NCBI GenBank assembly: GCA_963827165.1
Contig: CAWGZR010000010.1
Coordinates: 256,001 to 320,000, forward strand
DNA length: 64,000 nt
Source: Candidatus Bathyarchaeota archaeon
GTDB taxonomy: Archaea > Thermoproteota > Bathyarchaeia > Bathyarchaeales > Bathycorpusculaceae
Direction of reading: 5' to 3'
This document shows, one piece after another, positions 6,298-62,332 of this stretch. Positions within the stretch are counted from its first letter, which is position 1, and the number at the start of each line of letters is the position of its first letter. A model generated the notes under the pieces. That model did not search any database. It was not told the DNA's origin and saw only the letters and a list, made by a program, of their open reading frames with translations. A program made the position numbers and the translations under genes.

Positions 6298-7365
6298 ATG
6301 GCTAGCAAAGAAGAAAAAATTACCATGCTGCATGGAGCAGGTGGCACAGTCATGCACAACTTGGTCAAGAACTACATTGTGAAATACTTCGGAGGCTTAA
6401 CCAATGATGCTGAAGTCCCGCTAGAAGCCATGGATGATGCGGCGGTAATAGGCGACATCGTTTTTAAAAGCGATTCTCACGCGGTTAAACCTATATTTTT
6501 CCCAGGCGGTGACATCGGGCGTTTATCCGTTTCAGGCACCGTTAACGACATTTCAGCAATGGGTGCGATGCCTTACGCTTTAGCGTGCGGCTTCATTTTG
6601 GAGGAAGGTTTGCCGCTGGCGGACTTGGAGCGGATTCTGGTAAGCATGCGTGACACATGCATTGAAGTTGGCGTCGGCATAGTTACGGGTGATACCAAAG
6701 TCGTAGAAAAGGGCGCGTTAGGCGGCTTAGTCATGAATCTATCAGGCATAGGCAAACGAACCCCGGCCTTAGACAGTAACCTAGGCGTGGCGAACCAATA
6801 TCGCAAAGTTGCCAGCCGTTGGACTCTGGACTCTAACGTTGTGGAAGGCGACAAAATCATCCTCACAGGCACAATCGGAGACCACGGAATAGCAGTGCTT
6901 TCCGCTCAGCAGGGACTCAAGTTCGGCAGCGAAATAAAATCCGACGTAAGACCATTAAATCGCATGCTTCAGCATTTGTTTGGACAAATAGGGGGGGTTA
7001 TTTCAGTAAAAGATCCCACTCGTGGCGGTTTAGCTGACGCGCTTAATGAGTGGGCGGAGAAATCCCACGTGGGAATATTGATCCAGGAAGGGAAGGTTCC
7101 TATCCGCGAGGATGTTCAGGCGGCATGCGACATGCTTGGCTTGGACCCGCTGGAAGTTGGGAACGAGGGTAAATACATAATCGGAGTGGTCAAAGAGAAA
7201 GCGCAGGAAGCCTTAGAGTTTTTGAAGCAGACGGAAGAGGGGAAGAACGCACAAATAATCGGGGAAGCGACAAGCCAATTCAAGGGCGTAGCGATGCAAA
7301 CTGAGGTCGGCGGTAAAAGAATTATCGCAAGACCAATTGGCGACCCTGTGCCAAGAATTTGCTAA
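6298..7365 (+). CDS. hypE: [NiFe]-hydrogenase maturation carbamoyl dehydratase HypE
   Basis: HGAGG, PIFFPGGDIGRLSVSGTVND, DPTRGG, C-terminal PRIC. Confidence 0.97.
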   Translation: MASKEEKITMLHGAGGTVMHNLVKNYIVKYFGGLTNDAEVPLEAMDDAAVIGDIVFKSDSHAVKPIFFPGGDIGRLSVSGTVNDISAMGAMPYALACGFILEEGLPLADLERILVSMRDTCIEVGVGIVTGDTKVVEKGALGGLVMNLSGIGKRTPALDSNLGVANQYRKVASRWTLDSNVVEGDKIILTGTIGDHGIAVLSAQQGLKFGSEIKSDVRPLNRMLQHLFGQIGGVISVKDPTRGGLADALNEWAEKSHVGILIQEGKVPIREDVQAACDMLGLDPLEVGNEGKYIIGVVKEKAQEALEFLKQTEEGKNAQIIGEATSQFKGVAMQTEVGGKRIIARPIGDPVPRIC

Positions 7366-8450
7366 TTTTGGACCGCTACGTTTTTTGCCCAGACTCTGCA
7401 GGTGCCTTCGCTGCTGACCATGCATGCGCCGACGGGTTTCTCGGGCGTGCAGGCTTTCAGAAATAAGGAGCAACCATCAGGTTTGATTCTCCCGATAATG
7501 ACAAGGTGGCATTGGCATCCTGTGATTATATCTTTCCCTGTCTCGACATGAACATCATATTTCTTTCGAGCGTCCAGTTCAGCGAGTGACTCTCGGATTT
7601 CGAGAGCGGAGTTTTCCAAGTTTCCAATGCCGCGCCAGTTGCCGCTTGTAACCTTGAACGCTTCGTTCATAAGTGCTATGGCTTTGGGATTACCTTGTGG
7701 TTTGACCACGCGTGGATATTCATTCTCAAGCCTTGCAGTTCCCTCAGCCTTCTGCTTCACGACCATATAGATAGCCATCAAGACATCAAGGGGTTCGAAG
7801 CCCGCCACAACCGTTGGCATGTGATAGTCTCGAGGGAAAGGCTCATATGGTTTGAGGCCGATGATTGCGCTGACGTGTCCTGGCGCTATAAAACCATTAA
7901 TCTGAAGATCACCTATTCCAAGCAAAAGCTCCATGGCGGGCGGAATCAAACGGTGAGAAACAAGGAAGCTTAGGTTCTTGGGCGGGTTATTAAGCGCTTC
8001 GACCGCAGTTGATGGAGCTGTAGTTTCGAAACCTACAGCGAAAAAAACGAATTGCTTGTTGGGTTCCCGCTCGGCCATTTCAATCGCATCAGAGGCGGCG
8101 TAGACGATTCGGACGTCGGCGCCGACCGCTTTAGCTTCCAAAAGGGACACTTCGCTACCAGGAACCCGCAAAACGTCTCCGAAACATGTGACCACAACCC
8201 CTTTCTTTGCCAGTTGCACCGCTTCATCGATTTCAGCCGCAGGCACAATGCAAACAGGGCATCCGGGACCTGCGATAACTTCGACCCCGTCAGGTAAGAG
8301 GCTGCGCAACCCGAAATGCGTAATTGTCCACTCGTGCGTGCCACAGACATGGCATATTTTGGTTTTTCCAGCTTTAGGCGCCAGGCTTTTAATTTTCGCA
8401 GCAATGCTTTGAGCTAACTGGGGGTTCCGGAACCTTAGGTTTTCAGCCAT
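7362..8450 (-). CDS. hypD: Hydrogenase maturation protein HypD
   Basis: CGTHE, GPGCPVC, GFETT, PGHVS, CMVSSEGTC motifs. Confidence 0.98.
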   Translation of the reverse strand: MAENLRFRNPQLAQSIAAKIKSLAPKAGKTKICHVCGTHEWTITHFGLRSLLPDGVEVIAGPGCPVCIVPAAEIDEAVQLAKKGVVVTCFGDVLRVPGSEVSLLEAKAVGADVRIVYAASDAIEMAEREPNKQFVFFAVGFETTAPSTAVEALNNPPKNLSFLVSHRLIPPAMELLLGIGDLQINGFIAPGHVSAIIGLKPYEPFPRDYHMPTVVAGFEPLDVLMAIYMVVKQKAEGTARLENEYPRVVKPQGNPKAIALMNEAFKVTSGNWRGIGNLENSALEIRESLAELDARKKYDVHVETGKDIITGCQCHLVIIGRIKPDGCSLFLKACTPEKPVGACMVSSEGTCRVWAKNVAVQN

Positions 8451-8474
8451 GCTGACCCTTCAAAATTACCTGTC

Positions 8475-8696
8475 CTATTGGCCTGCTTCAAGGATGCTGT
8501 TCCACAGGCTGATGGTTTCTTTGGCGTCTTCTTCTTCGATTATTTGTATAGCGTAACCTGCGTGGACCAACACGTAGTCACCGACTTTGGCTTCGACGAG
8601 CGACACGTTAACCTCCCTTAGGACGCCTTGGCCAAAATCCACGTTGGCTTTATCGCCTTGAAGGTTCATAACTTTAGCGGGAATGGCTAAACACAT
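8475..8696 (-). CDS. hypC: Hydrogenase chaperone HypC
   Basis: MCLAIPAKV...VGDYVLVHAGYAI. Confidence 0.98.
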   Translation of the reverse strand: MCLAIPAKVMNLQGDKANVDFGQGVLREVNVSLVEAKVGDYVLVHAGYAIQIIEEEDAKETISLWNSILEAGQ

Positions 8697-8744
8697 AACT
8701 ATCAATAAATAAAACGTTTGAAACGGCGATAAAAACAGATTGGT

Positions 8745-11024
8745 CTAAAAGCGTGAAAAGCCGCCTACGACAGCCTGACCAAAAGAAATCCCTCCATCAC
8801 CTGCTGGAACAGCCTCATGAACCAGAAAACGAAATCCAGCAGCCTCAACCGTTTTACGCATGACCTTAGCGAGAATCTGGTTACACGCAGCGCCGCCTGA
8901 AAAACCAATGCTCTTAACACCTAAAGCCATGGCTTTTTCAACCGCCAGTGAGCCCAGACCTCTTCCAAGGTAAGCGTGTGCTGAGTAAGCTAAGTCGCCA
9001 GAGGAGAATTCGGCTTTGTTTTCAAAAATCAGCCGTAACAGGGAGGACGTTTCCAAGATCTCACCTTCAATGGCGGATTTCAACTTCAGGACATCTTTGC
9101 AACCGATTGCAGCGGATTCAAGTTTCATGGCAGGTTCACCCTCGTAGCTTCTCTCGTAACAGATCCCTAAAACGCCTGCAACCGCGTCCAAAACTCTGCC
9201 GCAACTTGTCGTTTCAATTCCAGAGTTTTTCCCGAGTTGTGTGAGGATAAGGTTGACTTCGGTTTCGCCGAAAGGCAAATGCGCACTGTTCTCTCGCAGC
9301 CAAGGCTCAACTTTGACGTGAGCTTTTGCCAGAATTCCAGCGGCAATCCTTAGCGGATAACGACTCGCGATGTCCCCGCCAAGCAGCGGCTGAGGCTCTA
9401 AATGCCCAAGACGCTTAAACTTTGACGATTCGCGCGTGCAAAACAGGATTTCTCCTCCCCATGCGCCTCCGTCTGAGCCGTAGCCGTACCCATCACAGAC
9501 AACGTTGACAGCTTCCTCCAAGTTGTGCTCAGCCATTAAGGCGGCAGCGTGCGCATGATGATGTTGAACCTGGACGAGCGGCGCTCCATCTGCCTCCGCC
9601 ATCTCTTTCGCGAGAGCGGTTGTGGTGAATTTTGGATGCAAATCGCAAACGACGGCTTCGGCGTGGCAGTTAGTGAGGGTGTAGAGGTGGTTTGCTGCTT
9701 GCTGCAGAAAGCTACGCGTTTCCACGTTTTCGACGTCGCCAATGTGTTGGCTGATGAAGGCTTTGTCGTCTTGAAGGACGCAGGCTGTGTTGTTGAGTTC
9801 ACCTCCTAAACCCACGACGCATCGTTTAGCCTTCGCTTTGAGCTTTATGGGTGCGGGAGCGTATCCGCGGCTTCGGCGGATGAACACTTGGCGATTGCCA
9901 TGGACGCGCATTACAGAGTCGTCGCATCTATGGGCGATTCTTCGGTTGTGAAACAAAAAATAATCGACCGTAGCACTCAACGTCTTGATTGCGTGGTCGT
10001 TATCGAAAACGATGGGTTGATTGGGCGGATTAGCGCTGGTCATCACAAAGGCGAGGTCATCCACCTTGTCGAAGAGCATGTAATGCAAGCCTGTGTAGGG
10101 CAGCATGACGCCGACGTTATGAAGGTTAGGCGCAGTCAGCGACGAAAGGTTGTATCCAACGCTTTTGTTCAGCAGCACAATAGGCCTCATCGGCGACTGC
10201 AACAACTCCTGCTCCTTCGAACCCACTTCGGCGAAGGATTTAGCTGCCTCCAAACTTTTGGTCATTACAGCAAATGGTTTCTCCCGCCTGAGCTTCGTTG
10301 CTCGAAGAGCCCGCAACGGCTTATCCAACATCACTGAACATGCAATGTGGAAACCGCCATACCCTTTTATCGCCAAAATATTGCCTTCCGAAAGAAGCCG
10401 CCCCGCCTCACGCACGGGGTCTTTGACTTCTACTGGTTCGCCGTCGCGTCCTGTCAAGTAGGCTTTGGGTCCGCAGGATGGGCAAGCAACAGTTTGCGCG
10501 TGAAATCGCCTGTTCTCTGGGTCCTCGTACTCGCTTTGGCAGAAACCGCACAAGGGGAACTCTCGCATGGTGGTATTTTCGCGGTCGTAGGGCAACCGCT
10601 CAATTATGGTAAAGCGCGGCCCGCAGTTGGTGCAAGTGATAAAGAAGTATTCGTAGCGGGGGTTTTTGGGGTCGCGCAGCTCGATGAGGCATTCGTTGCA
10701 GATTGCGATGTCAGGCGGGATGACCGAACCTAAAAGATTCGCCTCATTCGAACTCTTCCAAATGGTAAATTCGGTGAACTGGTTTTCGCCTGGAAGCTTG
10801 ATGGATTTGATGCTGTCAATCTGCGCTATCGGCGGCTTCTTCTCTGTTAAATCCCGCGTGAAATTTTTGATGTTTTGCCCGTCACCCTCCAAGAGGATTT
10901 CAACTCCCGCGTCTCCTCGATTGCGGACGTACCCTGCCAAACCGTTCTGTACTGCTATTCGGAAGACGAAGGGGCGGAAACCAACGCCTTGAACGATACC
11001 CGTGACGTTTAATTTAACTCTCAA
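8745..11024 (-). CDS. hypF: Carbamoyltransferase HypF
   Basis: GIVQGVGFRPF acylphosphatase domain, two CxxC-x18-CxxC fingers, HHHAH, PAGDGGISFGQ. Confidence 0.98.
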   Translation of the reverse strand: MRVKLNVTGIVQGVGFRPFVFRIAVQNGLAGYVRNRGDAGVEILLEGDGQNIKNFTRDLTEKKPPIAQIDSIKSIKLPGENQFTEFTIWKSSNEANLLGSVIPPDIAICNECLIELRDPKNPRYEYFFITCTNCGPRFTIIERLPYDRENTTMREFPLCGFCQSEYEDPENRRFHAQTVACPSCGPKAYLTGRDGEPVEVKDPVREAGRLLSEGNILAIKGYGGFHIACSVMLDKPLRALRATKLRREKPFAVMTKSLEAAKSFAEVGSKEQELLQSPMRPIVLLNKSVGYNLSSLTAPNLHNVGVMLPYTGLHYMLFDKVDDLAFVMTSANPPNQPIVFDNDHAIKTLSATVDYFLFHNRRIAHRCDDSVMRVHGNRQVFIRRSRGYAPAPIKLKAKAKRCVVGLGGELNNTACVLQDDKAFISQHIGDVENVETRSFLQQAANHLYTLTNCHAEAVVCDLHPKFTTTALAKEMAEADGAPLVQVQHHHAHAAALMAEHNLEEAVNVVCDGYGYGSDGGAWGGEILFCTRESSKFKRLGHLEPQPLLGGDIASRYPLRIAAGILAKAHVKVEPWLRENSAHLPFGETEVNLILTQLGKNSGIETTSCGRVLDAVAGVLGICYERSYEGEPAMKLESAAIGCKDVLKLKSAIEGEILETSSLLRLIFENKAEFSSGDLAYSAHAYLGRGLGSLAVEKAMALGVKSIGFSGGAACNQILAKVMRKTVEAAGFRFLVHEAVPAGDGGISFGQAVVGGFSRF

Positions 11025-11047: not shown

Positions 11048-11152
11048 CTACTGGGTTTTGGCTCTGTTAACGGCGTCTTCCCTTGCAAGCTTTTCAGCCT
11101 CAATTCTCAGTCTTAATGTTCTGTCGCTTTCGTCGATTACTTCGTCATGCAT
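11048..11152 (-). CDS. Possible small protein (34 aa) upstream of hypF
   Basis: MHDEVIDESDRTLRLRIEAEKLAREDAVNRAKTQ*, preceded by GGGGAT; fills the gap before hypF. Confidence 0.4.
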   Translation of the reverse strand: MHDEVIDESDRTLRLRIEAEKLAREDAVNRAKTQ

Positions 11153-11203
11153 GATAATCCCCAATAATATTGTAAAACTTTGAATTAAGAATTACCTAAA
11201 AAT

Positions 11204-12844
11204 CTAAATTTGGCCTTTTCTTTCATTAAGCAGCAGCCGCTTTAAAACTTTGCCTGCTGAGCTAACCGGTAAATCCGTTCTGAACTCGACCTCTCGGATC
11301 GCTTTATAGGGTGCTACCTTATCGTTAACGAAGGCTTTGATTTCCTCAGCCGAAACAACTGCACCTCCATTAAGCACAACATAAGCCTTTGGGACTTCTC
11401 CAGCGAGAGGGTCAGGTTTGCCAACTACTGCGCACAGTTTGACCGCTGGGTACTTGCAGAGAATATCCTCAAGTTCCTTTGGGTAAACACTAAAACCACC
11501 GTATTTTATGAGGTCTTTTTTGCGATCAGTAATGTAAAAGTAACCATCTTTATCCATGTGTGCTATGTCCCCTGTGAGAAGCCACCCATCATGCAGAACC
11601 AAAGAGGTCTCCTCAAGGCTGTGCCAGTAACCCTTCATGACCTGTGGTCCCTTCACCGCAAGCTCGCCCGTCTCGCCTACACCAAGAGTTTTTGCGCCTG
11701 TGCCTAAATCCACTATTCGTGCATCTGTATCTGGTAGGGGCAAACCGATAGAACCGACTTTCACCATTTTCATGGTGCTGTCTATGGGATTGCAGTGGGT
11801 AACTGGTGATGCTTCTGTTAAACCGTAGCCTTCAGCTAAAAATCCTCCTGTGACTTGCATGAATCGTTTTTGGGTTTGCGGTGGCAACGGTGAAGCGCCC
11901 GAAATGCAAACACGAATCGATGTTAAGTCATATTTACCAAGCTCTGGGTTAGCTAAAAGTGCCTGGTACATGGTGGGAACACCGCAGAAAATTGTAATCC
12001 TGTTTTTTTGAAGGGCTTCCAAGGCTTTGGCCTGATCGAACTTTGGCATCAAAACCATTTTTGCCGCCAAACTGATGGGTACAGTCATACTGGTTGTCAT
12101 GCCGTAAATATGGAAAAGCGGCAGCGCAGTTAGGAAGGTTTCTTGAGCTGCCCTACCCCTTATCCAAGCGCCGAAAGCGAGTGCATTAGAGAGGAGGTTG
12201 GTATGTGTTAGCATGGCGCCTTTAGCTGTTCCAGTTGTGCCACCGGTGTATTGCAGGACGGCCAAGTCCTCGTTTGGGTTCAATTTTACGTTTGGAGCGT
12301 AAGCTGATTCTTTTTCTAATAAAGCTTGAAAAGCTAAAGTGTTTGGAACGTCAAGGGGACGCGTTTTTTTGTAGCAATACTCGTCTTGGCCTGTTACTAT
12401 TATGTTTTTTAGCTTGGTTTTTTGCTTAATTTTCGCTATGCTTGGATAAAGAGAATCCAGCACAATAATAGTTTGTGATCCTGAATCATTCAATTGGTAC
12501 TCAACTTCGCGCTGTCGATACATGGGGTTTATGGCTGTTACAACCGCGCCAGCTCCAAGCACACCAAAATAGGCCACCAGGAACTGAGGAACATTAGGCA
12601 AAAAAATTGCAACACGATCACCTTTTTTCACCCCTAACTTAACAAGAGATTGGGCAAACTGGTTTGAGAGCGTTTCCAAATTGCCATAAGTGATTTCTCG
12701 CTCGCCATAAATTATGGAGGTTTTTAGCGGAAAATCATTGGCGCTTTTGTGAAGGATTTCTTGGAGAGGAACCTGTGGAAGTTCGAGGTGCTTTGGCACT
12801 TGAGCAGGCCACGAATTAAACCAGGGGGTATTTTTTTGGGGCAA
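11204..12844 (-). CDS. Long-chain fatty acid-CoA ligase (FadD-like)
   Basis: YTGGTTGTAKG, EGYGLTEASP, GWLLTGD, GKVLKR adenylation motifs. Confidence 0.93.
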   Translation of the reverse strand: MPQKNTPWFNSWPAQVPKHLELPQVPLQEILHKSANDFPLKTSIIYGEREITYGNLETLSNQFAQSLVKLGVKKGDRVAIFLPNVPQFLVAYFGVLGAGAVVTAINPMYRQREVEYQLNDSGSQTIIVLDSLYPSIAKIKQKTKLKNIIVTGQDEYCYKKTRPLDVPNTLAFQALLEKESAYAPNVKLNPNEDLAVLQYTGGTTGTAKGAMLTHTNLLSNALAFGAWIRGRAAQETFLTALPLFHIYGMTTSMTVPISLAAKMVLMPKFDQAKALEALQKNRITIFCGVPTMYQALLANPELGKYDLTSIRVCISGASPLPPQTQKRFMQVTGGFLAEGYGLTEASPVTHCNPIDSTMKMVKVGSIGLPLPDTDARIVDLGTGAKTLGVGETGELAVKGPQVMKGYWHSLEETSLVLHDGWLLTGDIAHMDKDGYFYITDRKKDLIKYGGFSVYPKELEDILCKYPAVKLCAVVGKPDPLAGEVPKAYVVLNGGAVVSAEEIKAFVNDKVAPYKAIREVEFRTDLPVSSAGKVLKRLLLNERKGQI

Positions 12845-24584: not shown

Positions 24585-25448
24585 CTATTCCTCGAGTACA
24601 CCAATTAAATTCTCGATGTCTTTGATCCAAGTGTTTATTGATTCTATGTTTTCATCTTGGTTTCGTGATACTTTCTGCATTCCGCTCAGTTGGTCAAGCT
24701 GGTGCTTGTAGTATCCAGCCAACAAGTTCAATGGCTTTATGAATTGCGCTGTTGGTTCATGTCTTTCTATTTTATTGCCTAAACTGCTAAGCGCCATGGT
24801 CATTTCTTCCACGGTCATGTCAGCGTTTTTCTTGAAATCTTGAAGTACCCACTGCTTGAAGACTATATTGCGTTTTCTCCAGCCAGTGGATTGCTCAGTG
24901 AAGGTTTTGAGCACGGCTTGATAAAGCGGCATGACAGGTTCTGTTTCAGGCGTGGACATTTTAGGCGAAACAATGGAGCTTTTTTCCACCGCCAAAGAGT
25001 CATAATGCGTCTCGTCGAAAGTTAGAGTCAAACTAACGCAAGCCCTAAGTGGGGTACCTAACGCAATCCATAGGTTACTCATCTCAACCACAGAAAGTGA
25101 ATCCATTTTTACCCTGAAACCCCTAATGCTGTCATCATCTGAACTAGCAATCGTCGATGCTTGAAAAAATACATGAATTATTTTTTCGAGCAATGAATGA
25201 GCGTCTTTATCATTTGCACTTAGTGGTGTAACAAGGTAGTGCAATGCAAAAACTGGTTCAACTGTTATGTTATAGAGAAAAATCGATAATTTTCCCAGTC
25301 CATGTGTGCCTACAGTTTTCGGAGACGAAAACGAAATCTGCTCGTGGCTTAAGACCAAATTTTTTGAGGCGGACTCTTTTTCTACGCCTTTCCAGACAAG
25401 ATTCGACAGCACCTCGTCGGCATAAGAGATGAAGGCCTTTTGAGACAT
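24585..25448 (-). CDS. DUF4255/Pvc16-N-like domain protein with a C-terminal helical domain
   Basis: LSIFLYNI...LHYLVTP...HSLLEKII...MSNLWIALGTPLRACV matches my recollection of the DUF4255 pattern. Confidence 0.7.
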   Translation of the reverse strand: MSQKAFISYADEVLSNLVWKGVEKESASKNLVLSHEQISFSSPKTVGTHGLGKLSIFLYNITVEPVFALHYLVTPLSANDKDAHSLLEKIIHVFFQASTIASSDDDSIRGFRVKMDSLSVVEMSNLWIALGTPLRACVSLTLTFDETHYDSLAVEKSSIVSPKMSTPETEPVMPLYQAVLKTFTEQSTGWRKRNIVFKQWVLQDFKKNADMTVEEMTMALSSLGNKIERHEPTAQFIKPLNLLAGYYKHQLDQLSGMQKVSRNQDENIESINTWIKDIENLIGVLEE

Positions 25449-33401: not shown

Positions 33402-34280
33402 GTGCCTAAACCGCGCACACTACACTTGATCATCGTGCAGACACCCAAGTACCACATCTATATCGAGTATAGTGAGCCTGACAAGTCCGGCTTTCGCTTC
33501 AACGTTTCCCACGTAGAACTAATAGGAAAAATCCAAGAACCTTTCGCCAACTGCGAACCTTTCTGGTTTATGGGACGTCTCCTCAACCCAATCAAAGTTG
33601 CCAAAATCGTTATCTTTTGGTCCTACCTAACAGCTGACCAGCTGCATTTACCTAACAATGAAAGTCTCATAGCAGCTAAAGACAAAAAATACCTCATCGA
33701 CAACCTCCTCAAAGGAAAAGTTAAAGGCGTTTACCTATGCACCGAGGAATTTGTGGCCGTGACCCAAAAAAAATCGGCCCTATCCCCACAAGCTCAACCG
33801 GTAGTCTTCACTCCAAATGGCATACCACGGCGAATTGTCGTTGTTTCTGGAACAGATGAAATAATGAAGCAAACCATCACTGGAGCTTTGAGAAAACTCG
33901 GCCTCGCCGCCTTAATTATGAGTGAAGAACCCGGCCAAGGCAAAAAAATCGTCGACCGCTTCGCAGACTACACCGATGTGGACTTTGCTTTGGTGTTGCT
34001 TTCGCCTGACATTTACGTTTACCCTAAGGGAGAAGAAGCGACGAAACGCGAACGAATCCCAAAGCAAGATGTGACTTTAATGTTTGGCTTCCTATTAGGG
34101 AAACTTGGAAAGGATAAAGTACTTGCCTTCTATAGGGAAAGCCCAAACTTCGCCATTCCAATAGATTTCGAAGGCGTCAAATTCACAGCCCTAGACGACC
34201 GCGATAGTTGGAAACTTACCCTCATACGAGAACTCACCAACTGCGGCTATACGGTTGATGCTGAGAGACTTTTAAGGTAA
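33402..34280 (+). CDS. Protein with a C-terminal TIR-like nucleotide-binding domain (CAP12/Pycsar TIR-like, degenerate)
   Basis: IVVVSGTDE...SEEPGQGKKIVDRF...FALVLLSPD...QDVTLMFGFLLGKLG...IPIDFEGV...WKLTLIREL. Confidence 0.8.
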   Translation: MPKPRTLHLIIVQTPKYHIYIEYSEPDKSGFRFNVSHVELIGKIQEPFANCEPFWFMGRLLNPIKVAKIVIFWSYLTADQLHLPNNESLIAAKDKKYLIDNLLKGKVKGVYLCTEEFVAVTQKKSALSPQAQPVVFTPNGIPRRIVVVSGTDEIMKQTITGALRKLGLAALIMSEEPGQGKKIVDRFADYTDVDFALVLLSPDIYVYPKGEEATKRERIPKQDVTLMFGFLLGKLGKDKVLAFYRESPNFAIPIDFEGVKFTALDDRDSWKLTLIRELTNCGYTVDAERLLR

Positions 34281-48445: not shown

Positions 48446-50170
48446 CTAGTACTTCCTCGCTTTAGGTTCAAAACGGGTAATAACCACGGGTTTGTATCTT
48501 GCCTCAAGCCCGCTGGCAGAGGAAAAAGCCATGGTGTGTTTTAGCCAGGCTCCGTCGTTACGACTTGGAAAATCGTTGCGGTAATGGGCACCGCGGCTTT
48601 CCTGTCTCTGCAACGCGGAGTAGACAATAACTTCAGAAAGCTTCAACATATTAGTTAACTCCAATGCGCCTTCGAGCTCAAAGTTGAAACGTTTGCCACT
48701 ATAGCTTAACCCAACATGTGCCATCCTGCCTTGAAGCTCGCGAATTTTACCCTGCGCCTGCTCCAAACCCACCTTGTCACGGAAAACGCTGCATAACTGG
48801 GTCATGGTTCTCTGCATTTCTGCACGAATTATTGCCACACGTTCCTTTCCAGCTGAAGCCAACAGCGAATCGATTTTTGAAGAAACCATTTTCTCGGCGG
48901 CTGCGTCGAGCGGGACTTGCTGGTTCCCGGAAACATAATTCACGATATGTAAGCCTGCTCTTTTTCCGAAGACCACCAGATCAACCAGCGAGTTTGTCCC
49001 AAGCCTGTTTGCTCCATGAACGCTTACACAGGCACATTCGCCCGCTGCATACAAGCTAGGCACAATAATGGATTTCTCATCTGCAAGTACGCGCGCCTGG
49101 GCGTCGGTAGGCACGCCGCCCATCATATAGTGGCATGTTGGCGCAACGGGAATCAATGATTCACTTGCGTCTATGCCGAGGTAATTCTTAACAAATGACG
49201 TGACTTCCGAAAGTTTTTCCTGCAACTGGTCCTTTCCTAGGTGCGTTAAATCCAAGTAAACATAGTCCGACCCATCTACGCCTCTGCCCTGGGCAACCTC
49301 AGTTAAAATTGCTCTGGAAATTATGTCTCTGGGCGCCAAGTCCTTGAGCGTGGGAGCGTAACGCTCCATAAACCGTTCACCCTTGCCGTTCCGCAACACG
49401 CCGCCTTCAGCCCTTGCCGCCTCGCTGACCAATATGCCTAATCCATGTATGCCTGTTGGGTGAAACTGGACGAACTCCATATCTTCAAGAGGAACTCCGG
49501 CGTCAAAAGCCAAAGAGAAACCATCTCCTGTGGCAGCGAAAGACATCGAAGTCGTTTGGAAGATTCTACCGCAGCCGCCGGAAGCAAGCAAAACCGCTTT
49601 CGCATGGAAAACCATCGGCTCACCCGTCGCTAACTCGTACCCAGAAACGCCGCAGATTTGTCCCTCAGATTTTAAGAGCGACGTGACGAAGACTTCATTG
49701 AATATTTTTACGCCTCGAACCATGCAGTGATCGTAGAGGGTATCCATTATTACCCGTCCCGTCCTATCAGAGGCGTAGCAAGCCCGTTTGACAGGGGCTT
49801 CGCCAAAATTTTTCGTGTGACCGCCGAACCGTCTCTGCTCAATCGTTCCTTTATCATTGCGGCTGAAAGGGACGCCAAGATGTTCCAACTCAATCACGCG
49901 TTCCGGTGCCTCCCGAGCCAAAATTTCAGCTATATCCTGATCTGCCAAATAGTCGCTGCCCTTCACCGTGTCGAACATGTGCCATTCCCAGCGGTCTTCC
50001 TCCTCGTTTCCAAGAGCCGCCGCGATCCCCCCCTGGGCAGAGCCGCTGTGACTGCGGGAAGCGTACACCTTGCTGATTACAGCGATGTTGCACGTTTCAG
50101 AAGCAGTTAAGGCAGCAGTTAACCCCGCGATGCCTCCGCCAACGATTACGACGTCAAACTCGTGAATCAT
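48446..50170 (-). CDS. sdhA: Succinate dehydrogenase/fumarate reductase flavoprotein
   Basis: [10 protein letters not shown] (covalent-FAD His), [29 protein letters not shown]. Confidence 0.96.
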
Positions 50171-51453
50171 GTTTTTCCAGCCTTTTCATCGAGAACTAGG
50201 ATTTCCCTGCCAATATCTTCAAGGGAATCGCAGCAGGTCATAGCCATTGCCATGCGCAAATCGCTCTTAACGTAGTTGAGGTACATTGCTACGGCTTCGG
50301 GTCCGCCTGCAAGGCTCATCCACGCAAGCGGTCTGCCTATCAAAGCTACATCCGCGCCTAACGCCAGGATTTTCAAAACGTCAAAACCTGTTCTCACCGC
50401 GCCATCAGCCATAATTGTAATTTTTCTTTTGAACTCGTCCACGATTTCGGGAAGGACTTCTGCTACGCCTTTTCCGCAGTCCATTACTCGGCCTCCGTGA
50501 TTGCTGACGTCTAGCGCTTTTGCACCCGAATCGACAACTTTGCCCGCATCCTCTGCATTCATGATTCCCTTGTAGATTACGGGTTTTTCTGTAGAATCGA
50601 CCAGTTCTTTGAGATCGCCCTCGCTTTTGCGGTAAAGCGGCTTGCCCCTCAGCGCCCAATTAGTGGAGCCGTATCCGTCCAAATCAACCCCGATAGCCAC
50701 GACGTCGGCTTGTTCACACCGCTTAAACAGGGTCAAAAGACGATCTTGAGATTGAGGCTTGAAAACAGGAATGCCCCAACCGCCGAGTCGGCCGATAACA
50801 TCTATGCCCGGATGGTCTGGCGCGTCGACTGTGTTGCCGCTTAACCCGACGGTACCTGCTAGCTTAGCGCCTTCAACCATGCCACGCTGGAATTCCTCCT
50901 CGCTCAAGGCGCCATTCATACTAATCAATGTCCCGCTGAAACTTGACGCCAAAACGGGTAAAACAATTTTGTTTCCCAGAAAATTTGTTTCAAAGTTTGG
51001 CTCGAGATGGTCTTTGATGACACGCATTTTCAGCTTATATCGGGATAGGGCTTGGAAGTTTGCGGTCCATGTTTTGCCTTGCCCAGCGCCACCGAACCCG
51101 ATTGGTTTGCCGTACTTCATGCCCTGGCAGAGTCTGTCAGGGTCTCCGTCACACACCTTGTTTACAGCACAGATTCTTGAAAGCTGCTTTCTGGCGATGT
51201 CTCGGTAGTACGTGATGTCTTTTGAGGGTTTTTCATTGGGCGGTGGGAAGTTTCTTTCGTAATTTGCCCTTACTTGAACATATTGTTGTTCGCTGATTTC
51301 TTTGAGGTTCCCTTTCCAATGACCGCAGACAGGGCAGCGCCAAGCGTTTGAAATTTCCGCAAGGTTCGAACCCGGCGGCAACTCCGCTCCTACGTCGCCT
51401 TTTTCCACGTCAAACGTAAAGCTACGGCAAAACCCACACACAAACTTCAACAA
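50167..51453 (-). CDS. FMN alpha-hydroxy-acid dehydrogenase with an N-terminal rubredoxin-like domain
   Basis: CGFC...WRCPVCG; [30 protein letters not shown]. Confidence 0.9.
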
Positions 51454-57226: not shown

Positions 57227-57365
57227 GCGCCAACTGGCAAGTTGTCAATATCTGTTCAGTTGAGTTCAAGCGCCAATTCGGATTCCAAAAGATTTATCTT
57301 TAAACCTAAACAGACTATTAGTTAATTGCCAAGTCCTGAGCAGTTTTTTGCGCGAGCCGTTTTAT

Positions 57366-58325
57366 ATGAGCCAAAATAACACTAGAAAAATCAGTCCTGA
57401 AGATCTAAAGCTGTTCGATGGGTCAAACGGGAGACCTCTTTATCTTGTTTTCAAGGGCAAAGTCTACGATTTATCGACAAGCCAACTTTGGCTTGAAGGC
57501 AAACACATGGGCATGCACACCCGAACCGACGACTTAGCCGAAGCGATAAAAACCGCGCCTCACGGCGAAGACAACGTTTTCAGATTTCCCGTTATTGGCG
57601 AATTGTTAGAACCCACCCTTCAAGCTCCTGCAGCAGCCCCGATGATGGAGAAACCCTTGGAAGCGAAGGTTCAGCCATCGCCTGTTCCAGCTCAGCCAGC
57701 GAGGATGGAGAGGCGCACTTTTCTCAAGCTGGCGGCCGCGGCGGGTGGAGCAATCACGATTGCGGCTTTGTTGTCTACCCTAAAAGCAGGAACTTTCGTT
57801 CCGCCTCCAAGCTCAACTGCAGAGTGGCCAGTCGTCACTGTCACAAACATAAGCAAACTTTCAAACCTCACACCAGTCGTCTTCTACTACCCCTTAACAA
57901 GCACCCCTAACTATCTTGTCAAATTAGGAGTTGCAGCCACGGGCGGCATTGGGCCAGAAAAGGACATTGTGGCTTTCAGCGCAATTTGCCAGCATTTAGG
58001 ATGCGAATATGGCTTCGTACCTCCGGGAGGCTCACCGCCCTGCAACGCAGCTTACAAGGCTTCAATGCCTATGGGCTACTGCTGCTGTCACGGCTCTCAA
58101 TACGATTTCATCCATGGCGCAAAAGTAATCGGCGGTCCCGCTCCCCGACCAGTGCCCATGGTTCAATTGCAGCTAAACTCATCCACGGGGGACATAAGCG
58201 CGGTTGGGATGCAGGCACCTACGATTTTTGGGCATGGCCCGCCTGGAACCACTGATCCCGCGTCGGTTATGCAGTATGATTTGCAGGGTGGAGATTTGGT
58301 GACGCAATCCACAGTTTTGGGATGA
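57366..58325 (+). CDS. Cytochrome b5-like domain / Rieske [2Fe-2S] fusion with an internal twin-arginine anchor
   Basis: N-terminal FDGSNGRPLYLVFKGKVYDL...W..GKH...H...APHG; MERRTFLK plus TM helix at 57705; CQHLGC and CCCHGSQYD. Confidence 0.92.
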   Translation: MSQNNTRKISPEDLKLFDGSNGRPLYLVFKGKVYDLSTSQLWLEGKHMGMHTRTDDLAEAIKTAPHGEDNVFRFPVIGELLEPTLQAPAAAPMMEKPLEAKVQPSPVPAQPARMERRTFLKLAAAAGGAITIAALLSTLKAGTFVPPPSSTAEWPVVTVTNISKLSNLTPVVFYYPLTSTPNYLVKLGVAATGGIGPEKDIVAFSAICQHLGCEYGFVPPGGSPPCNAAYKASMPMGYCCCHGSQYDFIHGAKVIGGPAPRPVPMVQLQLNSSTGDISAVGMQAPTIFGHGPPGTTDPASVMQYDLQGGDLVTQSTVLG

Positions 58326-59857
58326 GAGATATGGGCGAAGAAACTGAGAAGAAGACGGCTTATGACAGGCTTGTCGACTGGTTTGACGTGAAATTCGGTT
58401 TTGCCAAGACACCGCTTAAGCCGATTCCAGATTTCACGATGAACCCGATTTACTGGCTTGGTTTACTCTTGGCGGTGACTTTCGGGTTGCAGGCCCTAAC
58501 AGGAATATTTATGCTTCTCTACTACGTCCCCACACCCGCCCAAGCATACTCTTCAACAGCATCCATCATCAGCTCTGTGCCTCTTGGCTCACTCGTCGAA
58601 ACCTTTCACCTATACACCGCCTATGCCATGATTCTTTTGACGTTTCTTCATTTAGTTCGCAACTTTTTCGGCAGCGCGCATAAAGGAAACAGGGACTTGA
58701 TGTGGCTTGTCGGAATCGTATTGGCCACGGTGGTAATCGGCTTCGGCGTGACAGGCTACCTTTTACCGTGGACAGTGATTTCCAAATCTGCAAGCGACGT
58801 CGCCATCGGATTCCTCAACTTCTTCCCCGTTGGCATAGCGAACCTTGGAAAATTCGTGGCAGTAGGCTCAGGAAGCGACGCCTCGGAATTAACGACTTTT
58901 CTACATATCCACACCGTTTTTCTTCCGTTGGCGCTGATTGCGCTTTTGGGATTGAAGATTTACATGTACGAAGTGCATGGCCCAATCTACGTGTCAGCAT
59001 ATGGGAAACCTGGAAAAGGCAAATACTATAGTTGGTTCCCAAAAATCTTCCTCTACTTCGTCATGCTTGCAGCTGCGTATGTTGCGATTTTGCTGGCGGC
59101 AGCGTCTCTTTTCCCTCTATCTTTAGCCCCCGCGTATTCAGCCGCAACCGCAGGCGCATACGTAGTGCAGCCCGATTGGTACCTGCTTTGGGTTTATCAA
59201 CTATTGAAAATCCAGCTTTTCGAAGGCTCCGCAGCAGCTTACGTGATAGCCGCGTTGATTGCTTTCGGAGTGATTCTTTTCCTCATGCCTTTTTACGATA
59301 GGAGCAAACGAAGAAACCTCAGCCAACGACCAGTTTACTCCACCATTGGTGCTGTTCTGATAATTGAGCTTATCACTTTGACTATATGGGGATACTTAAC
59401 ACCTGGGCAAATAATTCCAGACTATCAAGCACTCGCAGTTTTAGGCGGAGCAGCCGTGGTAACCATCGCCGCCGTCTGGGCGGTTTATCGGCTTAGACGA
59501 AAAACAAACATGGCAACAGTGATACCTGTGCAAACGAAAACCAACTCTTCCGCCGCCAACATATCCATAGCAAGCCAGTCCTTTGCAGTGCAAGCCTCCG
59601 ACGAGATGGCTCGGACAAAGAAGGAGCAAATCAAACGCGCCGGCGAAAGCCTGTTTAGCCCATTCACCGCTGTCTTCGCGGTTTTCTTGGCGGTTGCTTC
59701 GGTTTCTTTGGCATCAGCCGTAAACATGCTGCCCACCATTTCAGCGAATGCATCTTTTTTCACCTTAGCTTTAATGGCTTTCGCAGTTTCGTCTTTTTTC
59801 ATGATTCGAATGCTTCGAAAGTTTGTTTTAGCGTATGAAGGAGCGGTGGCCAAATGA
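58322..59857 (+). CDS. Cytochrome b of a Rieske/cytochrome b complex (fused form, extra C-terminal TM helices)
   Basis: TGIFMLLYYVP, H-x13-H in helix B, TGYLLPW, PDWY Qo motif, PFYD. Confidence 0.93.
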   Translation: MRDMGEETEKKTAYDRLVDWFDVKFGFAKTPLKPIPDFTMNPIYWLGLLLAVTFGLQALTGIFMLLYYVPTPAQAYSSTASIISSVPLGSLVETFHLYTAYAMILLTFLHLVRNFFGSAHKGNRDLMWLVGIVLATVVIGFGVTGYLLPWTVISKSASDVAIGFLNFFPVGIANLGKFVAVGSGSDASELTTFLHIHTVFLPLALIALLGLKIYMYEVHGPIYVSAYGKPGKGKYYSWFPKIFLYFVMLAAAYVAILLAAASLFPLSLAPAYSAATAGAYVVQPDWYLLWVYQLLKIQLFEGSAAAYVIAALIAFGVILFLMPFYDRSKRRNLSQRPVYSTIGAVLIIELITLTIWGYLTPGQIIPDYQALAVLGGAAVVTIAAVWAVYRLRRKTNMATVIPVQTKTNSSAANISIASQSFAVQASDEMARTKKEQIKRAGESLFSPFTAVFAVFLAVASVSLASAVNMLPTISANASFFTLALMAFAVSSFFMIRMLRKFVLAYEGAVAK

Positions 59858-60510
59858 TGAAGAGCGACTTTGATTCCTTACGGGTTACTACGTATTTCCT
59901 TTTGGCTTTTCTAGTCGTGGTCGGAGTTTCTATTTGGCTTCTGAATCTGATAAGCCAGCAAAGAGTCTTCGGTTTCTTGATGAGCGCCGAATTCGTCGCG
60001 TTCGCTATGCTCGTCTACCTTTACTACATGGAGGACCCAGCAGTCGCTAAGAAACTGTTGACCTCAGGGTTTGTTGCCATAGGAATTCTTGTTATTTTAT
60101 CTGGTGCCGTATTAGCCGGAGTCGGTACCCCTGTGGCGCTGCCTAAGCCCAACGTTTCGATGACCCTCTATGCTGGGGAGGTTTCTCCTACGTTGTTTGG
60201 GTTCGGGAACAGCGCAACCGCCATAACTTCGCCGGGTCCAATCCTTAACTTCACGGTGGGCGATGTCGTGAACATGACGATTTTTAACGCGGGAACAATG
60301 CCGCATAACTGGGCGATAGTCGACTCCGACAGCACTTCAGGCAAAGTTTTGTTCGGCGCAAAAATCGACAGCGGCTTAGTTCCTATACCTGTCAATGAAA
60401 CAGCATCGGTTGCTTTCAGAGTCACCAAAGCAGGGGACTACTTCTACATTTGTCAAGTTCCAGGGCACGTCCAGCTTGGCATGTGGGGAAGCGTGGTAGT
60501 GAATCCGTGA
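59854..60510 (+). CDS. Membrane-anchored type-1 blue copper protein (cupredoxin, sulfocyanin/rusticyanin-like)
   Basis: Three TM helices, then PHNW and YICQVPGHVQLGM (H, C, H, M ligands). Confidence 0.9.
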   Translation: MMKSDFDSLRVTTYFLLAFLVVVGVSIWLLNLISQQRVFGFLMSAEFVAFAMLVYLYYMEDPAVAKKLLTSGFVAIGILVILSGAVLAGVGTPVALPKPNVSMTLYAGEVSPTLFGFGNSATAITSPGPILNFTVGDVVNMTIFNAGTMPHNWAIVDSDSTSGKVLFGAKIDSGLVPIPVNETASVAFRVTKAGDYFYICQVPGHVQLGMWGSVVVNP

Positions 60511-61283
60511 TACGCAAAAACGCAGAAGAACTCTTCGTTTCATTTATGTTTTTGTTTGCAAGTTTACTCACGGGTCTAATGAGCTTCTTGGCATTTGGCT
60601 TTGTAATTGCAAAGCAAAAAGCCGAAAGAAAAAGGGAACCCCAAAAAGCTGTTGGTTTTCTTGCAGACAAGAATAGAGCGCTGAATTTTTACAGAATATT
60701 TTCTGTAGCCTACGACACTTTGAATCCGTCCCTGTACACCGTTGCCATGCGAAGCGAAATGGTAAATCAAATCGGAAACGGCGCGAACCTGCGAGTGCTT
60801 GACGTTGGATGCGGAACAGGCTACACGACCTCAGGAGTTTTGAGGCGAGGAGACATTGCGGAAGTGGTTGGGTTGGATATGAACCCTGTGCAGCTTAAAA
60901 GAGCCGTCAAGAACCTGCGCTTCGAAATGGACAGGGCTTCGATTTCAAGAGGCGACGCGGACAACCTGCCGTTTGAAGACGGCACTTTTGACGCCGTAAT
61001 TTCGGTCGGCGCCATCGAGTATTTTCCTGACCCCGAAAGAACAATAAAGGAGCTTTCAAGAGTCGCAAAGCCCGGTGGAACCGTTATTGTTGGTGGTCCC
61101 GAAGCAGGATGGTTCAGCAAGCTTGCGTTAAACAAGGTTTTTTATACGCCTTCTGCACAAGAAATGGAGACTTTTTTTCGCAAAGCTGACCTCGCCAATG
61201 TGAAATCGCGCTTGACAGGGATGAAAACTTTTTTCGCAACAAACAGATATGTTGTTTTTGCCGTTGGAAAGAAACCAGCATAG
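60507..61283 (+). CDS. Quinone C-methyltransferase, VTE3-like/UbiE-MenG superfamily, with an N-terminal TM helix
   Basis: FYRIFSVAYDTLNP...MR, VLDVGCGTGYTT, GDADNLPF, GAIEYFPDP; GTG start overlaps the cupredoxin stop. Confidence 0.85.
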   Translation: MIRKNAEELFVSFMFLFASLLTGLMSFLAFGFVIAKQKAERKREPQKAVGFLADKNRALNFYRIFSVAYDTLNPSLYTVAMRSEMVNQIGNGANLRVLDVGCGTGYTTSGVLRRGDIAEVVGLDMNPVQLKRAVKNLRFEMDRASISRGDADNLPFEDGTFDAVISVGAIEYFPDPERTIKELSRVAKPGGTVIVGGPEAGWFSKLALNKVFYTPSAQEMETFFRKADLANVKSRLTGMKTFFATNRYVVFAVGKKPA

Positions 61284-61300: not shown

Positions 61301-62332
61301 TTAAGCTCTTTTCCGCGAGGCGAGTAGAGCCCAGGCTACAGGGGCATATGCGGCTGCTAGCAATGACAATATGAAAGCAAGTTGCAACATGTTAGCCGCA
61401 TTTAAGAAGCCTGCAATTGCGTACCCTGCGATTAAGCCGAAGCTGGTGACGCTATGTGCAAGTATCATGTCAAGGTTGGCTGGAGCCATCAGCCGTGGAT
61501 TGTCCTTGTGAGCCCGAACGACAGAGATGGAGTGAATAACAAGCGGGATGGATAGCAAAGCGGCAAGCGTGTAGAGCGGTATGAATCTGAGCAAAGCGGA
61601 AACGGCGATTACAGCGTATGTGCATATCCAACTTGCTATGTACAGTTTGACTCCAGCGTCTTTACCATATCTTGCGACAAGCGTAAGTTTCCCAGCCGCT
61701 CTATCCTCCAAAATATCAGGAATCTCATTAATCACAATCATAGAGAACAACATTATCCCCAGAGGTAACGTCGCCAAAAACGCCTGCAACGTCACCGTTT
61801 GCGCCTCAACATAAAAAGCGCCTAAACCGATAACTGACCCAAAATTCACTAACATCACAATCTCGCCTAGTCCGTGGTGACCAAAACTAATGGGCGGAGC
61901 CGTGTAGAACACGGCGCAGAACACGCCCAATAACCCGAAGGCCAAGATAGGCAAACCTCGGGTTAAGGTAAGATAGAACCCGGCGGCCAAAGTTATCAGG
62001 TAGCAGAGCGTAAAAGCCTTAAACATACTTTTAGGCGCTAAAAGCCCACTGCTAAGAGTAGCGCTACCGCCGGAATATGGGTTCTTCTCGCCCGGCGCAA
62101 GCTTGTCAACGCTGTGCTTGTAATCGTAGTAGTCGTCGGTCATGTTTAAGGCGATATGATTGATTATGATAGCGACTAGCACGAGAAGAAAGTAAAACGG
62201 AATAAAACCTCTGTTAGTTGCCCAACTGACTAAACCCCCAAGGACCGCGGGGAAGATGCTTGGAGGCACAAAATGGTAGCGGAAGGCTTGCCACCACACT
62301 TTTGCTTTACTTGCTTTTAACGTACTAGTCAT
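61301..62332 (-). CDS. menA: UbiA-family prenyltransferase, MenA-like
   Basis: NMTDDYYDYKHSVD, YTAPP, GLGE, NEIPDILEDRAAGKLTL. Confidence 0.85.
   Translation of the reverse strand: MTSTLKASKAKVWWQAFRYHFVPPSIFPAVLGGLVSWATNRGFIPFYFLLVLVAIIINHIALNMTDDYYDYKHSVDKLAPGEKNPYSGGSATLSSGLLAPKSMFKAFTLCYLITLAAGFYLTLTRGLPILAFGLLGVFCAVFYTAPPISFGHHGLGEIVMLVNFGSVIGLGAFYVEAQTVTLQAFLATLPLGIMLFSMIVINEIPDILEDRAAGKLTLVARYGKDAGVKLYIASWICTYAVIAVSALLRFIPLYTLAALLSIPLVIHSISVVRAHKDNPRLMAPANLDMILAHSVTSFGLIAGYAIAGFLNAANMLQLAFILSLLAAAYAPVAWALLASRKRA

Follow-up and report, generated by a model that had tools for sequence, protein, structure and literature searches.

Few energy converters have been studied as well as the complexes of a Rieske iron-sulfur protein with cytochrome b, and the plan of their subunits, which is taken to be well mapped, includes no cytoplasmic heme on the Rieske subunit. 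Insertion of heme b takes place in the cytoplasm, and Rieske domains cross the membrane in folded form by way of twin-arginine translocation (Tat), with an uncleaved anchor. Heme cn of the b6f complex is an addition to cytochrome b on the n-side (cytoplasmic or stromal). Further cytochromes b, fused to 4Fe-4S/MvhD or ferredoxin-flavin modules, form a 'PDWF-FeS' clade without a Rieske protein, as outlined in PMC4122944. Here we describe a gene at positions 57366 to 58325 of the window, by which we mean the whole stretch of 64,000 nucleotides that was analysed (positions 256,001 to 320,000 of contig CAWGZR010000010.1, assembly GCA_963827165.1, Candidatus Bathyarchaeota archaeon). The gene encodes a Rieske subunit that carries an extra predicted heme-binding domain at its N-terminus, an architecture that is conserved and apparently undescribed.

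The closest systems are Sulfolobus SoxF (PDB 1jm1) and the unfused operons of Nitrososphaerota and other Bathyarchaeia, which share with this locus the Rieske domain, an RR/KR-x-FLK anchor, a long cytochrome b downstream and a small third membrane subunit. A copper protein is the acceptor in the Sulfolobus supercomplex, as outlined in PMC4122944, and the locus, with its probable copper-protein acceptor, would resemble it in this respect as well. The unfused archaeal Rieske proteins, in contrast, lack the heme domain, and their N-termini lie 10-40 residues ahead of the Tat motif. A preliminary description of the gene had stated that Rieske subunits normally begin with the Tat anchor; this holds with a known exception, the actinobacterial QcrA (Streptomyces Sco2149), a Rieske protein with a twin-arginine motif that is not N-terminal and with dual Sec/Tat insertion (accounts in PMC3471235, PMC5449189). 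According to the same accounts, two Sec-inserted helices precede the Tat motif of QcrA, which lies before the third helix (PMC3471235, PMC5449189), whereas the fusion has a soluble cofactor-binding domain and one hydrophobic segment. A QcrA-type identity was rejected, with one hydrophobic segment instead of three helices and 36.6 bits against NF050121 (cut-off 275). Heme cn of b6f and the PDWF-FeS modules resemble the fusion in that a cytochrome b core gains an extra redox cofactor on its cytoplasmic or stromal side; there the addition is in or on cytochrome b, while here a predicted b-type heme would hang from a flexible tether on the Rieske subunit.

In the literature that we searched, on Bathyarchaeia Rieske proteins, complex III and terminal oxidases, on Rieske-b5-Tat fusions and on DUF2231, no heme domain at the N-terminus of a Rieske protein was found, in line with the preliminary description, which knew of no characterised complex of this kind. 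Two preprints on cytb5M, the heme protein class discussed below, do not mention Rieske proteins (0 occurrences in 10.1101/2021.11.17.468889; none in 10.1101/2021.11.30.470528). In the accessible portion of PMC11697101, the only Rieske proteins discussed for the Bathy-6 subgroup are small and soluble, and cytochrome b5 is a separate protein.

Architecture and predicted topology of the fusion protein

The open reading frame (ORF), as listed and translated, runs from the ATG at 57366 to the stop codon at 58323-58325. An alternative in-frame TTG at 57348 is possible; homologues begin at ATG 57366. Conservation was counted over 106 full-length homologues aligned to the window protein, and the same alignment was used for an AlphaFold2 model with a mean predicted local distance difference test (pLDDT) of 81.0 and a predicted template modelling score of 0.57. 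The parts of the gene are as follows.

57366..58325, + strand: cytb5M-linker-Tat anchor-Rieske fusion gene, 319 amino acids plus stop (ORF and translation)
57390..57605, + strand: cytb5M (MAPR-like cytochrome b5) heme domain, residues 9-80 (similarity to PDB 6vz6 / 6nzx)
57606..57704, + strand: flexible Pro/Ala/Glu/Gln-rich linker, residues 81-113 (pLDDT <50 for residues 84-115)
57705..57788, + strand: twin-arginine motif MERRTFLK in internal position, with the sole transmembrane helix, residues 114-141 (TIGR01409, hydropathy; predicted uncleaved signal-anchor)
57813..58322, + strand: Rieske [2Fe-2S] domain, predicted to be extracytoplasmic, residues ~150-319 (Pfam Rieske; box I CQHLGC, box II CCCHGS)

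Mean identity to the window protein was 64.6% for the heme domain, 30.7% for the linker, 75.7% for the anchor helix and 75.5% for the Rieske domain. Since the heme and Rieske domains are conserved and the linker has diverged, selection appears to act on both domains and not on the linker. The closest database protein, labelled Candidatus Bathyarchaeia, is 99% identical, and the public names of the homologues vary between 'cytochrome b5 domain-containing', 'Rieske 2Fe-2S domain-containing' and 'arsenite oxidase small subunit'. The preliminary description had read the gene as a single ORF with a b5-like domain, a P/A-rich linker, MERRTFLK with a transmembrane helix at 57705 and complete Rieske boxes, the b5 domain staying in the cytoplasm and the [2Fe-2S] domain being exported. 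Translation and the full-length homologues confirmed the single ORF and its order of parts, and the remaining elements were borne out by the conservation data and motif scores given below, the topology as a prediction.

The N-terminal domain matched two solved 78-residue 'cytochrome b5-domain' proteins, PDB 6vz6 (E 3.3e-15 over residues 9-80) and 6nzx (E 2.4e-14 over residues 7-80), and the alignment over residues 9-80 has no gaps. These two structures, from Methanococcoides burtonii (6VZ6) and Hadesarchaea (6NZX), represent 'cytb5M', a prokaryotic MAPR-like class of cytochrome b5 (10.1101/2021.11.30.470528). Their heme b is buried, with H42 and H61 as axial ligands and S34 hydrogen-bonded, and H46 and K68 contact the heme too (10.1101/2021.11.30.470528). 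In the ungapped alignment these residues correspond to H47, H66, S39, H51 and R73 of the window protein (in the order H42, H61, S34, H46, K68), a mapping that assumes a one-residue offset between the chain index and the numbering of the paper and that is consistent for all five residues. All five were unchanged in 106/106 homologues, so that the axial His pair, the hydrogen-bonding Ser and the second His of the stand-alone proteins are conserved. H47 and H66 are thus the predicted axial ligands, and the domain, which is folded in the AlphaFold2 model (pLDDT 72-88), probably binds heme b. The stand-alone cytb5M are soluble proteins of ~78 amino acids and of unknown function, while the domain in the window is tethered covalently to a respiratory subunit. 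A classical cytochrome b5 identity (PF00173) was rejected because the gathering threshold was not reached (16.4 versus 23.7 bits), and a precomputed PF00173 assignment was present in 19 of the 120 homologues listed. By its similarity to the solved proteins, the domain is assigned to the prokaryotic MAPR-like cytb5M type and not to classical b5. Of the wording 'His-rich cytochrome b5-like domain' in the preliminary description, the b5-like part therefore stands (cytb5M, E ~1e-15); residues 1-85 hold three His (H47, H51 and H66), which is not His-rich.

For the Rieske domain, Pfam Rieske scored 22.5 bits, over the cut-off of 20.3, and both boxes are complete: C208-Q-H210-L-G-C213 (box I, residues 208-213) and C239-C-C241-H242-G-S (box II, residues 239-244). 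The box cysteines and H242 were unchanged in 106/106 homologues and H210 in 105/106, and the domain was modelled with pLDDT >90. Its best solved relatives by sequence were SoxF (1jm1, E 5.8e-21) and AioB, the small subunit of arsenite oxidase; in a fold comparison AioB reached a template modelling score of 0.9, and SoxF matched too. Identity as AioB was rejected, with 78.7 bits against TIGR02694 (cut-off 95.65) and a cytochrome b, not a molybdopterin oxidoreductase, as neighbour. The fold similarity to AioB reflects the common Rieske fold.

The linker between the two domains is 25-34 amino acids long across the homologues and contains 21.8% P, 14.7% A, 10.5% E and 10.4% Q. It is followed by MERRTFLK (residues 114-121, with the ATG of M114 at 57705), where the Tat signal was recognised by NCBIfam TIGR01409 with 21.4 bits (over the cut-off of 16.7), and by Pfam TAT_signal with 18.7 bits (under 22.7). 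R116 and R117 were unchanged in 106/106 homologues; F119 and K121 were also invariant, as was G127 in the helix. The only hydrophobic segment of the fusion protein is centred at residues 127-132, which the AlphaFold2 model places in one long helix (residues 116-141), and residues 1-100 contained no signal peptide or hydrophobic stretch (maximum 19-residue hydropathy 0.77). Because residues 1-100 lack a signal peptide, the twin arginine is invariant and it lies on the N-terminal side of the sole helix, the heme domain is predicted to be inside and the Rieske domain outside. As a prediction, a cytoplasmic heme domain with an exported Rieske domain is well supported. Taken together, we regard this architecture and topology of the fusion protein as very probable.

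The preliminary description had also suggested that the internal ATG at 57705 might yield a short isoform. Such an isoform is not a conserved feature: of the 106 homologues, 71 have Met at residue 114, 17 have Ile, 16 have Leu, and one each has Val and Ala. At the fused loci described below, residue 114 was Met in 18 of 21, the window included. A purine-rich ...GCGAGG directly abuts ATG 57705, which leaves no spacer for a ribosome-binding site.

Distribution and origin of the fusion

Among the 120 best database matches, coverage of the query was 91% or more in 116, with identities as low as 55%, and the other four were 206-272 amino acids long. A scan of species-representative genomes gave 418 relatives, and the best 80 of these 418 were used for the locus counts. 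The heme domain was joined directly upstream of the Rieske part in 20 of the 80 loci, and the remaining 60 start at the Tat motif. In 19 of the 20 fused loci, from independent assemblies, the fusion is one uninterrupted ORF whose length-variable linker stays in frame. The exception, L019 (8001-8955), has a one-base frame change in the linker, and the same contig has broken sucC and UbiA genes; this locus looks error-prone.

It is extremely improbable that the fusion is an artefact, in the sense of two genes joined by a sequencing or assembly error or of translation from ATG 57705 only. The frameshift of L019 and a database protein that starts at MERR (P0106, 206 amino acids) speak for it, but L019 is frameshifted in sucC and UbiA as well, a single frame is kept through a linker of variable length in the 19 intact loci, and both the variable residue 114 and the missing ribosome-binding-site spacing argue against use of the internal start. 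An assembly artefact was ruled out by the full-length homologues and the uninterrupted loci, which contradict the possibility, named in the preliminary description as a refutation, that two ORFs had been joined by an error.

In a tree of the Rieske part with 53 rows (28 loci were omitted because the motif filter picked no usable ORF), a branch with support 99/91 separated the 21 fused rows from the others, and the fused rows were nested among unfused genes from other Bathyarchaeia and Nitrososphaerota. The ESM Atlas contained one cluster with the fused architecture, of 60 members. The tree and the Atlas cluster indicate that the fusion arose once. With the exception of L009, every fused locus carries a Bathyarchaeia or Bathyarchaeota title, and the isolate labels point to peat and soil assemblies. 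L009 (DATHCJ010000061.1) is labelled Candidatus Limnocylindrales bacterium; its fusion falls inside the Bathyarchaeia clade and heads the same operon, and the contig is probably archaeal and mis-binned.

Among 16 short proteins that are >55% identical to the heme domain, none was convincing as a close relative that stands alone. Most of the 16 look like frameshifted or truncated copies of the fusion (e.g., P0125, P0128, P0149, P0161), and P0125 and P0128, which have scrambled tails, look like products of errors of the kind seen in L019. Two further records were observed. At L017 (5765-6304), a partial second copy lies 2 kb upstream of the intact fusion, with a heme domain, a linker, a degenerate 'METRELLK' and hydrophobic stretches, and ends after 179 amino acids; it represents a duplicate in decay or else an assembly repeat. 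In P0160 (224 amino acids), a heme domain and a linker precede a Tat-like helix with 'IDRRTFLK', and the C-terminal part that comes next has no Rieske boxes and no Pfam match. It may represent another type of cytb5M-Tat fusion; alternatively, the record may be chimeric or frameshifted.

The heme domain in other proteins

A search with residues 1-85 against 1.84 billion representatives returned 1271 matches at E up to 1e-3. The best 150 of these 1271 comprised 87 tandem arrays, 27 N-terminal copies with an extension, 23 proteins of <=130 amino acids, 9 C-terminal copies and 4 internal ones. A Pfam scan of 46 representatives identified the following partners of the heme domain.

DUF2231 membrane protein: 19/46
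response-regulator receiver (cytoplasmic): 4/46
CopD: 3/46
TPP-enzyme domain: 2/46
complete Rieske fusion (P0170): 1/46

Based on this range of partners, cytb5M is a reusable redox module as judged from domain content, often found on membrane proteins and often cytoplasmic. The DUF2231 fusions are like the Rieske fusion in that an N-terminal cytb5M is followed by a membrane segment. They differ in their polytopic partner of unknown function and have no Tat-exported Fe-S domain and no Rieske/cytochrome b operon.

Operon and gene neighbourhood

The fusion gene heads an operon in which it is followed by cytochrome b and a blue copper protein in 20/20 fused loci. In the window, the genes downstream of the fusion are as follows; the counts of quinone-synthesis neighbours refer to 21 loci, i.e., the window and the 20 fused loci.

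58322..59857, + strand: cytochrome b, 511 amino acids, SoxC-like long form with a PDWY Qo motif (Pfam Cytochrome_B and Cytochrom_B_C; NCBIfam SoxC-like below cut-off)
59854..60510, + strand: membrane-anchored blue copper (cupredoxin) protein, 218 amino acids (Pfam Copper-bind E 1.8e-7, SoxE)
60450..61283, + strand: S-adenosylmethionine (SAM) methyltransferase, UbiE/MenG-like (Pfam and NCBIfam, generic, below equivalog cut-offs; 15/21 loci)
61301..62332, - strand: UbiA-family prenyltransferase, MenA-like (best NCBIfam 1,4-dihydroxy-2-naphthoate polyprenyltransferases, all below cut-offs; 16/21 loci)

The start of cytochrome b overlaps the stop of the Rieske gene on the same strand (58322-58325), and the start of the blue copper protein overlaps the stop of cytochrome b. 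A polyprenyl synthase was nearby in 12/21 loci, and the PDWY motif of cytochrome b goes with menaquinol-using complexes, as outlined in PMC4122944. In the UbiA genes of L005, L006 and L019, single-base frame breaks were seen in otherwise conserved genes of long-contig assemblies. A scan with bacterial-type promoter and terminator models found fewer promoter-like sites than shuffled sequences; these models are unsuited to archaea, and the result was not used.

The blue copper protein is the probable electron acceptor of the Rieske centre. In unfused relatives (e.g., L022 10114-10386), the third gene encodes a membrane protein of ~90 amino acids that matches only residues ~1-90 of the copper protein. 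Wherever a third subunit was detected in the 60 unfused loci, it had no cupredoxin domain, which occurred in the fusion clade only. Given that the third subunit of the unfused relatives consists of the membrane part alone, the fusion clade seems to have gained one carrier domain at either end, with heme on the inside and a cupredoxin on the outside.

Elsewhere, the gene content marks the window as archaeal; it includes ribosomal proteins of archaeal type, RNase P subunits, genes for hydrogenase maturation and tricarboxylic acid cycle genes. The hydrogenase maturation genes (6298-11024) encode a HypE-like AIR synthase family protein, HypD and HypF; their presence in one window with a copper-linked respiratory module hints at hydrogen use by a respiring Bathyarchaeia lineage. 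Two other proteins may belong to mobile-element or defence genes, one (24588-25448, - strand) with a Pvc16 N-terminal domain as in contractile-injection or phage-tail-like systems and another (33402-34277, + strand) with a CAP12/Pycsar-type TIR effector domain.

Proposed function and alternative explanations

We propose that the locus encodes, in a Bathyarchaeia lineage from soil or peat, a Rieske/cytochrome b complex of the menaquinol type in which the Rieske subunit has an added bis-His heme b domain of ~80 residues as an electron port, an explanation that, taken as a whole, we hold to be evenly balanced between right and wrong. The heme domain would fold and take up heme in the cytoplasm. 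Export of the folded [2Fe-2S] domain would then depend on the twin-arginine motif and the single helix, which together would form a Tat signal-anchor that is internal and remains uncleaved, and the heme domain would be left on a flexible tether of ~30 residues at the cytoplasmic (n) face of cytochrome b. Since these flexible residues tether the heme to a helix expected to pack against cytochrome b, the heme could reach the n-face. There it would serve as a third electron port, linking a cytoplasmic partner with the n-side of the complex, i.e., heme bH or the quinone-reduction face. On the outside, electrons would pass from the Rieske centre to the blue copper domain that is fused to the small third subunit in the fusion clade. 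The port function of the tethered heme, which the preliminary description had suggested as a cytoplasmic heme entry point, is put forward tentatively, at somewhat less than an even chance. More speculative is a full three-port complex, in which electrons, besides quinol oxidation outside and quinone reduction inside, would enter or leave through the heme domain at the n-side heme. This would be a hard-wired respiratory counterpart of the stromal electron input into b6f that has long been debated, and the protein would be the first found in nature with a folded cofactor domain upstream of a Tat signal-anchor that works; in this extended form the proposal is doubtful.

Some features of cytochrome b may bear on such a port. 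The charge of its n-side D-E loop was +2 to +4 in 19/19 fused loci versus -2 to +2 in 24 unfused ones, and the H-I loop was 43-54 amino acids long in fused versus 24-32 in unfused loci. These differences fit docking of the heme domain as a weak lead. The unfused sister locus L030 has a stand-alone 76-amino-acid cytb5M gene (11100-11330) ~1 kb downstream of its Rieske-cytochrome b-small subunit operon, and its cytochrome b has an AYxPAY loop motif in common with the fused clade. This locus may resemble the pre-fusion state, and a free-standing cytb5M near its operon fits the n-side port as another weak lead. A side observation concerns the n-side heme, whose fourth-helix His ligand in cytochrome b6 is the His of LLLLHFLMIR in our alignment. 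In the window cytochrome b (58322-59857), the corresponding position is K212, with H219 lying 7 residues on, and K212 was invariant in 27/27 fused and unfused archaeal cytochrome b sequences. As summarised in PMC4807273, engineered His-to-Lys ligands of heme b keep the low spin state and raise the potential. By analogy, a natural Lys ligand could shift the potential of the n-side heme.

Several observations weigh against the electron port. We know of no characterised precedent for a folded domain N-terminal to a Tat signal, and over residues 11-80 of the window protein the domain stays under the Pfam Cyt-b5 cut-off. One cytb5M protein, P0172, carries fasciclin and Listeria-Bacteroides repeats, which are of extracellular type, so that the location of cytb5M is not always cytoplasmic. 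The loop differences of cytochrome b are clade-specific and could reflect shared descent instead of docking. No conserved cytoplasmic partner, such as a b5 reductase, was found near the fused loci beyond the quinone-synthesis genes. A separate observation is that the window encodes, at 50170-51453 (- strand), a rubredoxin domain fused to a flavin mononucleotide-dependent 2-hydroxy-acid (lactate-type) dehydrogenase, adjoining the succinate dehydrogenase flavoprotein and Fe-S subunits. Yeast flavocytochrome b2 joins a dehydrogenase of this type to a b5 domain, and by this analogy the rubredoxin-dehydrogenase is a conceivable partner of the heme domain, as a lead only.

Other roles for the heme domain have to be weighed against the port. 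The protein may be a membrane-tethered b5 that serves other enzymes at the cytoplasmic face, with the Rieske helix supplying only the anchor and co-expression; in eukaryotes, anchored b5 serves desaturases and P450s. A linker that is long, disordered and poorly conserved would allow the domain to range freely, and the many tandem arrays and N-terminal copies among the best 150 matches show how widely it is reused. This role is rather unlikely, however, given that the partner is always the Rieske subunit heading the same operon (20/20 loci), that no candidate client enzyme is conserved nearby and that the anchor helix is conserved like the Rieske domain, as expected if it packs against cytochrome b. 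A heme-based sensor of cytoplasmic redox state, oxygen or nitric oxide, modulating the activity or assembly of the complex, is improbable. Receiver domains in 4 of the 46 scanned proteins do place the module in signalling, but in such fusions the receiver is the likely sensing element, and the solved relatives have a buried six-coordinate bis-His heme that is electron-carrier-like and has no open gas site (10.1101/2021.11.30.470528).

It is quite improbable that the domain acts in biogenesis, either by delaying Tat export until the [2Fe-2S] cluster is inserted or by handing heme to cytochrome b. Its position directly ahead of the Tat motif would suit such a role, and Rieske proteins need cofactor insertion before export, as outlined in PMC3471235. 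The 60 unfused relatives nevertheless do without it, and the invariant bis-His and hydrogen-bonding residues point to a stable rather than a transient heme site. Cleavage by signal peptidase after the helix (~...STLKA/G) would yield a soluble Rieske protein and a tail-anchored cytb5M. A small residue, Ala, after the hydrophobic stretch would suit such a cut, and the product would be like tail-anchored b5. We consider a cleaved precursor very improbable, since characterised complexes have uncleaved Rieske anchors, conservation of the helix is high, with G127 invariant, and the gene belongs to an operon of Rieske and cytochrome b genes, in which this helix anchors the subunit.

Implications

Internal Tat motifs in actinobacterial Rieske proteins and cytoplasmic redox modules on cytochrome b were already known; what appears to be new here is the predicted heme domain on the N-terminus of the Rieske subunit. 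If the domain is merely a co-anchored b5, the fusion would be a modest curiosity of domain architecture. If the electron port is true and the heme communicates with the n-side of cytochrome b, the complex would provide a natural and genetically simple system for electron input or output at this site, an issue that is still argued for cyclic electron flow through b6f. For the biology of the Tat pathway, the protein bears on how far from the N-terminus, and behind what cargo, a twin-arginine anchor works. For the physiology of soil and peat Bathyarchaeia, a class that is usually described as anaerobic, the locus means that a copper-linked respiratory module is nevertheless present.

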